Of a stretch of DNA of 64,000 bases, positions 44,460-47,949 are shown piece by piece. The position numbers were made by a program, and so were the translations under genes. Source of the stretch: Candidatus Bathyarchaeota archaeon (GTDB lineage Archaea; Thermoproteota; Bathyarchaeia; 40CM-2-53-6). Below the pieces are notes generated by a model. That model saw only the letters and a list, made by a program, of their open reading frames with translations. It did not search any database and was not told the origin of the DNA. Every line of letters starts with the position of its first letter. Position 1 is the stretch's first letter. The stretch covers positions 128,001-192,000 of the forward strand of contig CAVPLU010000010.1 of NCBI GenBank assembly GCA_963706285.1, written 5' to 3'.

Positions 44460-44867
44460 ATGTCGCATGATCTGAGAAAACACATTTTGGATGCAGTGGA
44501 TGAGTACTTCAAGCGAGCCGAGTTCATGGTCGAACGCGCCTTTATCTCCACCTGGAACGAGGCTGCCCAATGTATCGAGCCGCTCTACAACATTACCGTG
44601 GGCTCAAACGAGGTCATCGTGACTGTAGATCTACCGTATGTGAATCCTGAGGAAATCAATCTGAAGTTGCCTGCAGACGATACGGTTGAGATTGACGCAA
44701 ACACTAAACGACGAATAACGTTCGCCGACATGGGTGTGAGACACAGGGGTGGCCAATTCAAATCCTACCACGCTGTGGTCCATATGCCGGTTCCTGTAGT
44801 CGAGTCAGGAATGACTTCGAGATTCAAGCGCGGAGTCCTCGAAATCCGTCTGCCAAGACTCGTCTAG
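44460..44867 (+). CDS. Hsp20/alpha-crystallin family protein
   Basis: EPLY, VTVDLPYV, FKRGVLEIRLP. Confidence 0.85.
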   Translation: MSHDLRKHILDAVDEYFKRAEFMVERAFISTWNEAAQCIEPLYNITVGSNEVIVTVDLPYVNPEEINLKLPADDTVEIDANTKRRITFADMGVRHRGGQFKSYHAVVHMPVPVVESGMTSRFKRGVLEIRLPRLV

Positions 44868-45790
44868 GTTGCCTTCTCCAAAGCCGCCAAACAGGCCATT
44901 GGGAAGAGCGTCGCTGCGTCTCCTATCACAGTCGTGGTGCGACTGTTCGGCTTGATTTTTCCCCAGCTCACAGCTTCATCCAGTGGCGCTCCGCTGAGTC
45001 CGCCCGGTTCGGGGCGGTCCATAGTAAACTGGACTGCCGCGTCAAGCCCGCCGCGAAACGTGTTAGCGAGCAGACTAAAGTGCTTCGGCATGCCACCCCC
45101 CAAAATGACGAGCCCGATCTTCTTGCTCTCGTACGTCAGCTCGACAATTTGACTGAAATCACGCATGGGATTGAGGTAGAGGGTATTGAGCTGTCCGAAA
45201 GTCCAAAGGTCGATACCAAACATCGAATCATGTAATCCAGGGCAAAAAATTGGAACTTTGCTTTGGGCAGCATTCCGGAGAATTGAGGCCGGATCTTTGA
45301 TTTGGTTGCCGATCTCGCGCAGCAATTCCCAAGGCGCAATGTTGCGTCTCTTATCTTCAGCGATCTTAGACGCGGCCTTGTAGGTGAACTTTTCCAGCGC
45401 GTTTATCGCCCGTTGAGAGACATACAGGTCATATATTCTATGCAGGCCTCGGCGGCTCAGTTTTCGGTCGTCAGAATCTTCCGCTCCGATCTCATGTCGG
45501 TGACCTAGAGCCTCAATCAGGTCATGCGTCACATTAGCGCCTGTCATGATAAGTGCATGGATTCGTCGACCAGTAACTAGGTCACTCACTAGCTCACGCA
45601 GTCCGCCTGGGACCATAGGCCCTGCAATTGCCATCATGTTTGTGTACCTAGTGTCCCTGAACATCGTCGCAAGGATTTCCACGGCTTCAGAGAATCTTCT
45701 AGGTCCTAGTACTCCCGAACGGCGCATCTGATCTGAGACTTCACTTAGCGTCATGCCCGCTCTGAGTTTCATATGCCTAACATAGGGCAT
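44864..45790 (-). CDS. dys: Deoxyhypusine synthase
   Basis: TGANVTHD, HRIYD, LGGGMPKH, GGLSGAPLDEAVSWGK (catalytic Lys present). Confidence 0.92.
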   Translation of the reverse strand: MPYVRHMKLRAGMTLSEVSDQMRRSGVLGPRRFSEAVEILATMFRDTRYTNMMAIAGPMVPGGLRELVSDLVTGRRIHALIMTGANVTHDLIEALGHRHEIGAEDSDDRKLSRRGLHRIYDLYVSQRAINALEKFTYKAASKIAEDKRRNIAPWELLREIGNQIKDPASILRNAAQSKVPIFCPGLHDSMFGIDLWTFGQLNTLYLNPMRDFSQIVELTYESKKIGLVILGGGMPKHFSLLANTFRGGLDAAVQFTMDRPEPGGLSGAPLDEAVSWGKIKPNSRTTTVIGDAATLFPMACLAALEKAT

Positions 45791-45833
45791 GAAGATGCCT
45801 CGTTCAGTGAGTTGCCCGCAGGCCAGTTTGATT

Positions 45834-46255
45834 CTAGCCTTTGGTTCTCACGATCTTCTTCTTGCCGAGCATTTCCCAGTATTCTATCTCTACGCCAGGT
45901 GCTAGTTTTGATTTGACTTCCTCATCATCTGGCTGGGGAGTTTCGAATGTCTCGTAGGATTGCAGGTCCATAATTTGAACAGAACTAGGCTGTACCGAGA
46001 TGATTTGGCCAGTCTTCTTGTCAATCATCGGAACCTCCAGTTTTCCATCGACCGGACTGATCACGTTACGTTTCTGGCCTGTGAGGACGCCCATTGCGAC
46101 GATCCTTGCTTTCGCGGAGCCGTGCTTGCCGTGTAGCGTTGTTCGCGCTACATTCCGGGTTTGCTCTTCTCGTACTCCACGATCTTGCAGGGTTCGCCTT
46201 CGATTACAACGTATTGTCCGATCTTCAACGAGCCTACATCGACTGGTTTGCTCAA
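45834..46255 (-). CDS. eif5a: Translation factor aIF5A, interrupted by a 26-nt putative intron (exons 46255-46153 and 46126-45834)
   Basis: TTG start with upstream GAGGA; exon 1 [34 protein letters not shown], exon 2 [20 protein letters not shown]...; 422-26 = 396 nt = 131 aa plus stop. Confidence 0.93.
46127..46152 (-). other. Putative BHB-type mRNA intron in aIF5A
   Basis: Insert T-GTAGCG-CGAACAA-CGCTAC-ACGG-CA forms a hairpin, contains an in-frame TAG, and its removal restores SKPGKHG. Confidence 0.75.
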
Positions 46256-46457
46256 CGCGAGTTCCTCAATTCATGCAGGTTGACTAGGGGCGCTTCTAAA
46301 AAGCTTCCGAGAATAGACTCATGAATAAAATCATCGCGTAAGTCATCTGTCTTCAAATCTATCCGATCCTCCGTGTACGATGATCCTCTTTCTCCGCGAG
46401 GGTTTTGCATACCATAAATAGTGGGTTGGATCTCTAGGGTATGCGAGCGGTCCTGTT

Positions 46458-47297
46458 TTGGTCACCAAAGTTGGTCTCGTTTCTAGACTCGACGAAGACG
46501 CTGCCCTGAAGGTCGCGTTGAGACTCTACAAGAACATGACCAAGAAAGGGATCAAGGTACTGCCCGAGGAGCAGCTCGCCCAGATTGCGAAGCTACCTGG
46601 AGGCGTCTCGTTCTCAAAGATGGATGCTGACCTAATTGTTACTGTGGGCGGGGACGGGACCGTTCTCAAGACTTGCATGTCTATTCCGAGGGCTGAGACT
46701 CCGATATTGGCGGTCAACATGGGTAGGAGGGGATACCTTACAGAAGTCGACCCTGAGGGTGCAATGCATGCCGTTGAGAGTTGCATCAAGGGTACCAGCA
46801 AGAAGGAAGAGCGGACGAAGCTCTCCGCGACCATCGAGGGAGAAAGTCCCATCGACGGATTGAACGAAGTTGTGATATCTTCCGGAACTCCATCGAAAAT
46901 GCTTCACTTCATGGTATCAGTCGACTCGTCGCAACTGGAGTTTCGCAGCGACGGCCTTATTGTATCGACACCGACTGGATCAACGGCGTATTCTCTCTCC
47001 GCGAACGGTCCGATCATGGACAACTCTGTAGAGGCCTTTGTCGTGACGTTCATCTGTCCTCTTGAACATCTCACACCTCTGATTGTGTCCATGGAGAACA
47101 GAATCAAAATCGAGTTAATGGATCCCAAATTGAAGGGAACACTAGTTGTGGACGGACGAGTCCAAAGGGAACTACAGCCCCAGACATCAGTCATAGTCAC
47201 TCGATCATCTCACAAAGCAGTGTTAGTCCGCCTCGGGCCAATTCGCTCCCTTAGAGGCCTCATGCGTCTTCGCCCAGTTCCCAGAGACACTTGGTAA
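46458..47297 (+). CDS. nadK: NAD kinase
   Basis: GGDGT, NMGRRGYL, LNEVV, DGLIVSTPTGSTAYSLSANGP. Confidence 0.95.
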   Translation: MVTKVGLVSRLDEDAALKVALRLYKNMTKKGIKVLPEEQLAQIAKLPGGVSFSKMDADLIVTVGGDGTVLKTCMSIPRAETPILAVNMGRRGYLTEVDPEGAMHAVESCIKGTSKKEERTKLSATIEGESPIDGLNEVVISSGTPSKMLHFMVSVDSSQLEFRSDGLIVSTPTGSTAYSLSANGPIMDNSVEAFVVTFICPLEHLTPLIVSMENRIKIELMDPKLKGTLVVDGRVQRELQPQTSVIVTRSSHKAVLVRLGPIRSLRGLMRLRPVPRDTW

Positions 47298-47382: not shown

Positions 47383-47949
47383 TTGGATCTACCAAACGAG
47401 AATAAGGTTAGAGTCCTAGTCCTCGACACTTCGGCTCTGGTTATGGGATTAGATCCATCTGGGCTTAACGTGCCTACGTACTCAGTCCCAAGCGTCATGG
47501 ATGAATTGATTCCAGACACCCTACCTCATACTAGGTTCAGCGCATCCATGAACGCAGGTCGTCTGGTCGTCGAAAGACCGACCCCATCTTCCATGAAAGT
47601 CGCGCAGGAGACTTCATCAAAAGTAGGCGATGCAAACGTACTGTCAAAGGCGGACACTGAAGTCATCGCTCTCGCAGTAGATCTGAGAAACAACGGACTA
47701 TTTCCCGCGATTGTCAGCGATGACTACGCAGTTCAGAACGTGTCAGAGACTTTGGGAATAGAACACGCTTCGCTCGCAAATTTCGGTATAGTTCGCAAGT
47801 TCGATTGGATCTACTATTGCCCCGCCTGTTTCAGAAGATATGGGATAGAAGATGCAGGTCAGGCGTGCAGGATATGCGGGACCCGCCTGAAGAGGAAGGT
47901 TGTAAGGAAAGAGAATGCCACTAGGAAGGTTGGTCGTAACCAAGCGTAA
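47383..47949 (+). CDS. nob1: Nob1 endoribonuclease (PIN plus Zn ribbon)
   Basis: VLDTSA, LSKAD, SDDYAVQN, CPAC..CRICG. Confidence 0.92.
   Translation: MDLPNENKVRVLVLDTSALVMGLDPSGLNVPTYSVPSVMDELIPDTLPHTRFSASMNAGRLVVERPTPSSMKVAQETSSKVGDANVLSKADTEVIALAVDLRNNGLFPAIVSDDYAVQNVSETLGIEHASLANFGIVRKFDWIYYCPACFRRYGIEDAGQACRICGTRLKRKVVRKENATRKVGRNQA

Follow-up and report, generated by a model that had tools for sequence, protein, structure and literature searches.

A candidate bulge-helix-bulge intron within the hypusine-lysine codon of the aIF5A gene in Bathyarchaeia

How does an archaeon produce its translation factor aIF5A when the codon of the lysine that is to become hypusine is interrupted by 26 nucleotides (nt) containing a stop codon? 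The question is raised by a 64,000-nt stretch of DNA of a Candidatus Bathyarchaeota archaeon (contig CAVPLU010000010.1, positions 128,001 to 192,000; G000:C10:128001-192000 in our numbering), which as a whole is here called the window and in which positions are counted from its first letter. The genome, G000, amounts to 2.13 Mb in 21 contigs and is 89% complete, with 7.5% contamination. We conclude that 46152..46127 on the minus strand is very probably spliced out of the aIF5A pre-mRNA as an archaeal bulge-helix-bulge (BHB) intron. The preliminary description of this DNA had proposed such a tRNA-type intron, and the proposal is supported by the conserved position of the insert, by covariation, by a cut rule that restores the frame, by selection on the exons, by the single copy of the gene and by the presence of the enzymes; cleavage, ligation and their efficiency are what we infer from these observations.

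The interrupted codon and the motif around it

On the minus strand the gene reads AGC AAA CCC GGA A, then TGTAGCGCGAACAACGCTACACGGCA, and then AG CAC GGC TCC GCG AAA GCA AGG. The frame opened by the TTG at 46255 (-) continues into GGA ATG TAG and terminates after 35 residues (SKPGM), and a separate frame encodes HGSAKARIV and what follows, through the eIF-5a C-terminal domain (PF01287, at G000:C10:173840-174025, that is, in exon 2). In-silico removal of 46152..46127 (-) gives an aIF5A of 131 residues with SKPGKHGSAK. The preliminary description of this site is confirmed: the 26-nt insert with its in-frame TAG is correct to the base, the inverted repeat TGTAGCG/CGCTACA is exact and the restoration of the 131-residue protein was reproduced by script. 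Furthermore, residues 1-34 of aIF5A, the part encoded by exon 1, were matched by tblastn at 31/31 of the relatives' loci tested.

The insert and its flanks can be drawn as a BHB motif (Table 1), and the drawing put forward earlier holds base for base: its central helix CCGG/ACGG forms 3/4 pairs, its bulges are AAT and CAA, its inner stem measures 6 bp, and the outer helix consists of a C-G pair. The central helix joins exon to intron and contains a G.A mismatch in the window's genus, where the A of ACGG can pair instead with T46152 and so extend the stem; the inner helix of the window has 6/6 pairs. RNAfold likewise pairs CCG with CGG around the insert (-22.2 kcal/mol, z -2.1). In a BHB motif the RNA is cut behind the second base of either 3-nt bulge, a rule that follows from the canonical 37/38 intron of tRNA. 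When this rule is applied to the 21 intron-bearing species genomes that are described below, KPGKHG comes out in frame in 19, the window included, and the in-frame register of these 19 has a central helix of at least 3/4 pairs, bulges of 3+3 and an inner helix of at least 5/6 (or 4/4) pairs. Taken over all 21 genomes, the in-frame register has bulges of 3+3, and its central helix pairs 4/4 in 12 genomes, 3/4 in seven (again including the window) and, as scored by script, 2/4 in G513 and G485; the outer helix has 2 bp in 11 of the 21 and 0 bp in G415, G520, G422, G429 and G490.

The 26-mer was found once in the 2.13-Mb genome when up to 5 substitutions were allowed, and a scattered mini-transposon is thereby excluded for G000. 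An intact aIF5A paralogue elsewhere, another circumstance that had been named as speaking against an intron, is not the case either, as the genome has a single eIF-5a domain match, and a search of G000 with the aIF5A of an intact relative found only the two pieces of the 45834..46255 locus. A 17-nt near-match to the intron at C10:84902-84918 was rejected as chance (E 1.3), having no BHB context, and Rfam gave no match at E<=1 within 45700-46500.

Recurrence at the same codon

Among 105 genomes of the window's order (class Bathyarchaeia), 98 have an aIF5A match, and 12 of these 98 carry an insert at exactly the Lys35 codon; in a first set of relatives' loci the same codon was interrupted in 9/31. 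The carriers belong to the window's genus, to a genus of another family and to a further family (Table 1). Comparison of the relatives' genes for presence or absence of the insert and for covariation shows that its position is kept, that its length and sequence vary and that its helix pairs covary.

The structure was tested on an alignment (A1) of the 12 intron-bearing genes of the order, with 2 outer, 4 central and 6 inner pairs and 3-nt bulges. Pairing is found in 91.0% of the cells, compared with 20-35% in controls whose 3' partners were slid along by 1-3 columns. The insert is more than chance, both by this comparison and by the breakage of the same codon in 20 other species genomes. A compensatory change on both sides occurs in 4/12 pairs (13 cells). 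For covariation the structure scores 0.302 and shuffles score 0.151, with 0/500 of the latter reaching 0.302, a test that is inflated by kinship among the sequences; the slid controls, at 0.001-0.086, are the fairer one. The inner stem pairs in 98.6% of the cells and has compensatory changes in 3/6 of its pairs. In the central helix, which is a perfect 4 bp in genus g7 and family f2, the pair 27-56 covaries, being C-G in nine genes and U-A in three: a Pro codon CCT rather than CCC goes together with an intron CCAG rather than CCGG, so that a base of the exon covaries with a base of the intron. Finally, the Gly codon, the A of which lies in the bulge, is GGA in 12/12 intron-bearing genes of the order, and in 22 intron-less genes it is GGA in 10, GGC in 7, GGG in 4 and GGT in 1.

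The interrupted genes bear the marks of function. Once spliced in silico, the coding sequences contain stops in 0/39 cases (21 intron-bearing, 18 intron-less), and the median ratio of nonsynonymous to synonymous substitution (dN/dS) is 0.069 for the 21 pairs that the intron-bearing genes of genus g1 form, with dS ranging from 0.19 to 2.25. The interrupted aIF5A is under strong purifying selection across long divergence. Maximum-likelihood analysis of the coding sequences yields a tree in which genus g1 is a single clade (support 100/100), and the intron-less G002, G004 and G008 form one clade (99/98) that is sister to G000 and G001 (99/98) and nested among the intron-bearing members. This fits an intron that was ancestral in the genus and was lost once, precisely. 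The deeper branches of the tree are unresolved, and gains are not countable from it. For the cbf5 intron, precise loss is proposed in PMC2738675 to proceed via reverse transcription of spliced mRNA.

Screening beyond the order made use of patterns in place of a screen for two protein matches, which misses inserts with a length that is a multiple of 3. The pattern screens require exact motif matches and detect inserts of about 15-77 nt. In a sample of 401 genomes of the class, such a screen, which by its demand for exact motifs missed G009, gave no further case in the 296 genomes outside the order. Nine genomes outside the order with double matches (G238, G242, G272, G298, G140, G186, G356, G640 and G649) were rejected, as they show contig-end cuts or other breaks and not a Lys35 intron. 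One of these loci, in Bathyarchaeia (L037/L041, G272:C29:1656-2146), has its aIF5A match split around residues 65-90 with overlapping query ranges, a break unlike the Lys35 intron. Locus L094 (G559:C1:1480130-1480570) was likewise rejected as an intron; its aIF5A is about 17 residues longer through the in-frame, stop-free insertions LLPHSDQPSGEPC and DAKNAPTWVRSDSGQKRPH.

Outside the class, inserts at the same codon were found in nine further species genomes. They come from a sample of 401 genomes of the phylum, 387 of which have a match and in which a reversed-pattern control gave 0 matches, and from a 61-genome sample of the class of G702, which added G744. The insert lengths overall span 19-36 nt, and for G702, a genome in one contig, the minimum-energy fold given by RNAfold is a textbook BHB (z -2.9). 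In metagenomes, a pattern scan yielded 42 stretches, 38 of which parse as BHB-interrupted aIF5A with KPGKHG in frame and inserts of 21-36 nt, 17 of the 38 with a perfect central helix; some of these stretches are probably from the same organisms as the genomes listed. To judge from sequence, then, other lineages of the phylum have similar candidate introns at this Lys codon, and these fall into at least four sequence types and two codon phases. Inserts with a length that is a multiple of 3 retain in-frame stops (G097, G034, G429, G513 and G485), and such inserts therefore cannot be read through.

Where the inserts come from is a question of origin and not of mechanism. The insert might be what is left of a mobile BHB intron that formerly housed, for instance, a homing-endonuclease gene, or else a mini-transposon aimed at this highly conserved DNA, and it might persist without serving the cell, as its imprecise loss would destroy the Lys35 codon. 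We hold this explanation to be possible, though rather doubtful. In its favour, lineages that are far apart have one and the same codon occupied, in two phases and by four or more sequence types that are unlike each other. Against this stand the lack of any other copy of the element in G000, the flanking DHS (deoxyhypusine synthase) and NAD kinase genes, with no endonuclease reading frame between them, and the fact that no long, frame-bearing version was seen in screens able to detect inserts of about 15-77 nt. Moreover, the inserts of Bathyarchaeia, G702 and G744 are of one type with shared end sequences, which fits inheritance as well as transfer.

Table 1. Features of the aIF5A locus in the window, and groups of genomes with an insert at the Lys35 codon
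Feature or group	Position in the window, or genomes with insert	Strand	Details
aIF5A exon 1	46153..46255	-	TTG start, 34 codons and the first base (A) of the Lys35 codon
Candidate BHB intron	46127..46152	-	26 nt; TGTAGCG, CGAACAA, CGCTACA, CGGCA; in-frame TAG
aIF5A exon 2	45834..46126	-	AG completing Lys35, HGSAKAR and onward; TAG stop at 45834-45836
Central helix, 5' strand CCGG	46155..46158	-	exon 1; last two bases of the Pro codon and GG of the Gly codon
Central helix, 3' strand ACGG	46129..46132	-	intron; pairs 3/4 in the window's genus
5' bulge AAT	46152..46154	-	predicted cut after the second A, between 46153 and 46152
3' bulge CAA	46126..46128	-	predicted cut after CA, between 46127 and 46126
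Inner hairpin	46133..46151	-	GTAGCG (46151-46146), loop CGAACAA, CGCTAC (46138-46133)
DHS gene, intact	44864..45790	-	PF01916, E 1.1e-87; 43 nt downstream of aIF5A
Genus g1 (of the window)	7/10		26 nt
Genus g7 (another family)	2/2		25 nt
Family f2	3/15		27, 27 and 28 nt
g145	G415, G422, G520, G429 (4/4)		35-36 nt; CGGA/TCCG; bulges AAA/AAA, AGA in G422; predicted cut after the second Lys-codon base
g177	G513, G485 (2/2)		30 nt; central helix a poor fit
G490	G490		19 nt; central helix GGGT/GCCT
G702	G702		32 nt; CTGG/CCAG; bulges TAT/ATA; predicted cut after the first Lys-codon base
G744	G744		22 nt; CTGG/CCAG; inner stem GTAGC/GCTAC, resembling the Bathyarchaeia type

Enzymes, transcripts and competing explanations

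Two EndA paralogues of 186 and 174 aa are encoded in G000, each with an N-terminal domain and a C domain of the catalytic type, and the genome also has the RtcB ligase. The 186-aa protein is nearest to EndA structure chains and the 174-aa protein to a construct and an enzyme entry. We take the first of these to be crenarchaeal EndA, and the others to be a Methanopyrus construct and the enzyme of M. jannaschii. The two sequences suggest that EndA of G000 is a two-subunit enzyme, a type that is reported in PMC5829648 to accept relaxed motifs. ARAGORN, with introns allowed, places putative introns in 25 of the 26 tRNA genes that it finds in G000, several at non-canonical positions. A de novo BHB scan of the genome gave 25302 raw matches, and 1903 and 807 after two filters for open frames, and is too noisy without homology. 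Stretches on contigs C6/C7, C10/C11/C15 and C4/C20 are nearly identical, as exemplified by identical matches of the BHB scan at C6:23444 and C7:4190 and by the same pair of tRNA-Met and tRNA-Phe genes on C4 and C20; such duplication agrees with the value of 7.5% given for contamination or redundancy in the bin.

With these enzymes the following course of events can be proposed. CCGG of the exon would pair with ACGG of the intron to form the central helix, and the 6-bp hairpin of the intron would provide the inner helix, so that the bulges AAT and CAA hold both cut sites. On either side the two-subunit EndA would cleave behind the second base of the bulge, and RtcB would ligate CCC GGA A to AG CAC GGC, by which the AAG codon of Lys35 is rebuilt. 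The rebuilt Lys35 would be the residue modified by the neighbouring DHS. On mRNA that is left unspliced, translation would stop at the TAG after 35 residues. The aIF5A and DHS genes lie head to tail in the window (44864-46255, minus strand), with 43 nt between them, and the genes of the substrate and of its modifying enzyme are probably co-transcribed. The upstream neighbour of aIF5A is a divergent NAD kinase gene, beside which, at 47383-47949 (+), there is an open reading frame of 188 aa with a CxxC...CxxC pattern in its C-terminal part.

Several observations weigh against splicing. The motif is of the relaxed form, with an outer helix of just 1 bp in the window and a central helix that pairs 3/4 only in its genus. 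An unbiased scorer picked the in-frame register in 10/21 genomes only; in genus g1 it favours CCCG/CGGC with a stem of 7-8 bp and the removal of 28 nt, which is out of frame. The earlier remark that the junction is able to slide is therefore true of the window's genus, where a second, out-of-frame register exists. The fit of G513 and G485 to the motif, as found by script, is poor, and a hand-made reading of the two in phase 2 gives a central helix of 3/4 pairs, with the metagenome locus L159 in support. The rtcB gene on contig C4 (G000:C4:105729-107043) is itself broken in the assembly: its reading passes from one frame to another that overlaps it (YLPAMA / AACNFAWVNRQ), as a 1-nt indel would bring about. 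Its frameshift is probably an error of the assembly consensus and not an intron, and the preliminary description's mention of 1-nt indels elsewhere is plausible, since rtcB of the same assembly is frameshifted in just this way.

The RNA and protein data belong to the same side of the balance. One contig of an RNA library (metatranscriptome X20; 312 nt, depth 4.6, covering 46061-46313) carries the insert unspliced, and no joint is reported. It differs at one base of the loop and extends past the start codon into the upstream spacer, on account of which it may represent DNA carry-over or pre-mRNA. Four runs were compared as contigs (RNA X20, X16 and X17; DNA X1), a form of the data that can show neither rare forms nor absence, and X20 alone covers the insert; X16 and X17 yielded nothing on the gene, and X1 yielded short pieces that lie off the insert. 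In the public protein collection, queried with exon 2 of the window and of G702, no full-length product was found that is attributable to spliced RNA. Intron-bearing aIF5A genes have been called as truncated proteins of 75-118 aa (P0007, P0009, P0016, P0053, P0121-P0130), and in some of them the N-terminus stems from an out-of-frame reading of exon 1 and the intron (VREEQARNVARRTLHGEHGSAKAR). In the lineage of the window, the full-length proteins that come nearest, at 90-93% identity, resemble the intron-less clade of g1, and the closer or lineage-specific entries are all truncated reading frames; for the lineage of G702, the close relatives provide truncated reading frames only.

The same protein could be obtained without RNA splicing by programmed translational bypass, in which a ribosome with peptidyl-tRNA-Gly would leave GGA, skip the hairpin and the stop, land 26 nt on at GGC and resume at AAG CAC. 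In gene 60 of phage T4, where bypass occurs, a hairpin and a stop directly follow a Gly GGA codon and an untranslated gap is skipped. The window's genus resembles this, having GGA and then TAG in a hairpin, with a contiguous GGC AAG CAC in ACGGCAAGCAC; for G415, AAA could serve for take-off as well as for landing, and the unspliced X20 contig is compatible with bypass as well. Unlike in gene 60, however, take-off (GGA) and landing (GGC) codons are unmatched in the window, matched codons are not conserved among its relatives, and the split Lys codon of these relatives could not be rebuilt by bypass. In g7 a second GGA is followed by TAA or TAG, in f2 there is no contiguous AAR before CAT, and in both the Lys codon exists solely as A/AA or A/AG across the two cut sites. 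In G422 the landing triplet would be AGA. Bypass also leaves unexplained why a 4-bp helix between exon and insert covaries and why the 3-nt bulges are constant. We therefore regard it as very unlikely.

An equally slight chance is given to the insert never being removed, with the gene working as two pieces (a 35-aa N-terminal peptide and a protein started downstream) or through its C-terminal domain alone. Gene callers do predict truncated frames of 75-118 aa of this kind, the first ATG downstream of the insert being that of Met46, and the X20 contig agrees with such a reading as it does with bypass. Yet the hypusine loop with Lys35 would be lost next to an intact DHS gene, and to our knowledge aIF5A is the only DHS substrate known. 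SKPG and HGSAKAR flank the insert in 21/21 genomes, with the Lys codon rebuilt by the cut rule; dN/dS is low across both exons jointly; and exon 2 begins without a conserved start codon. Least credible of all, and hardly to be entertained, is a dead or dying gene or an artefact of error-prone long-read assembly, a suspicion nourished by the probable rtcB frameshift error, the 7.5% contamination and the near-duplicate contigs but opposed by the recurrence of the insert in 20 further genomes of other species and in 38 stretches of metagenome DNA, by contig names (NODE_ and k127_) that suggest other assemblers, by the 0/39 spliced coding sequences with a stop, by the dN/dS of 0.069 and by the lack of a second copy in G000.

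Relation to known introns and meaning

According to the overview in Schwarz 2020 (PMC7714728), only the cbf5 mRNA intron was known before beyond the introns of tRNA and rRNA, and an intron in a 5' untranslated region was added in Haloferax. A literature search, outside of which lay the lists in the supplements of papers, turned up cbf5 and one 5' untranslated region as the only archaeal mRNA BHB introns described and found no description of an aIF5A or hypusine-codon intron, which agrees with the preliminary description, whose author knew of none.

The candidate intron is akin in behaviour to the BHB intron of cbf5 pre-mRNA in Desulfurococcales and Sulfolobales (Watanabe 2002, as cited in PMC7714728; Yokobori 2009, PMC2738675). 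As these sources portray it, the cbf5 intron is also a short BHB insert in a protein gene of Thermoproteota that breaks the codon of a residue essential to function; in certain copies its length (33-39 bp) keeps the frame, and these still require removal; and its distribution is patchy, with precise secondary losses inferred and hosts that possess a hetero-oligomeric EndA. The differences are that the host genes are cbf5 and aIF5A respectively, that the lineages are not the same (here Bathyarchaeia and others) and that the aIF5A codon hosts inserts of several types and of two phases. The cbf5 intron has been shown by experiment to be spliced, in the account of these sources, whereas the aIF5A intron is known here from sequence. 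The aIF5A insert was rejected as a copy of the cbf5 intron family; given its host gene it works alike and is not a homologous copy. In G000, cbf5 itself has no interruption in the TruB_N domain.

With the canonical tRNA intron (hBHBh', at 37/38, processed by EndA and RtcB) the candidate has in common 3-nt bulges on opposite strands 4 bp apart, a small insert (here 19-36 nt), predicted cuts after the second base of each bulge and presumably the same enzymes. It differs in that the exons are those of an mRNA, that the outer helix is coding and weak (0-2 bp) and that the central helix of the window is mismatched. The 5' untranslated region intron of HVO_1309 in Haloferax volcanii is similar in making an mRNA a substrate of the tRNA splicing endonuclease; as presented in Schwarz 2020 (PMC7714728), it is situated in a leader that is not translated and was demonstrated both in vivo and in vitro, in contrast to the aIF5A intron, which lies inside a codon and is predicted from sequence.

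A more remote parallel concerns HAC1 and XBP1 in the IRE1 pathway. The small, frame-changing mRNA intron is a point in common, and the endonuclease, the recognition motif and the regulated role in stress differ, which leaves an analogy only. The intron of XBP1, too, is 26 nt long, and splicing by IRE1 takes place without the spliceosome, by an endonuclease and a tRNA ligase. This unconventional, IRE1-dependent splicing of HAC1/XBP1, with joining by a tRNA ligase or by RtcB, is named in PMC13149111.

If the aIF5A intron is spliced as we propose, it would constitute a second and widespread case, in a universal translation factor, and splicing of mRNA by the tRNA machinery would not be the curiosity of a single gene. 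A practical consequence is that surveys of marker genes and pathways will count these lineages as having a defective aIF5A or none, because gene callers report truncated proteins of 75-118 aa. The wider interest is the repeated occupation of the same functional codon in other lineages. That the intron splits the hypusine-lysine codon allows a clean test between two views of such introns, as regulators or as selfish passengers kept where deletion is not possible. We suggest, tentatively and with odds that are rather against it, that the hypusine-lysine codon of aIF5A is a preferred site of landing or retention for BHB introns across Thermoproteota, mirroring the catalytic residue's codon in cbf5, or else that it serves as a splicing gate. 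In the first case, archaeal mRNA introns would behave like inteins and homing elements, surviving only where imprecise loss is lethal. In the second, synthesis of the hypusine-bearing factor would depend on the tRNA-splicing machinery, which would amount to a splicing gate on translation capacity.

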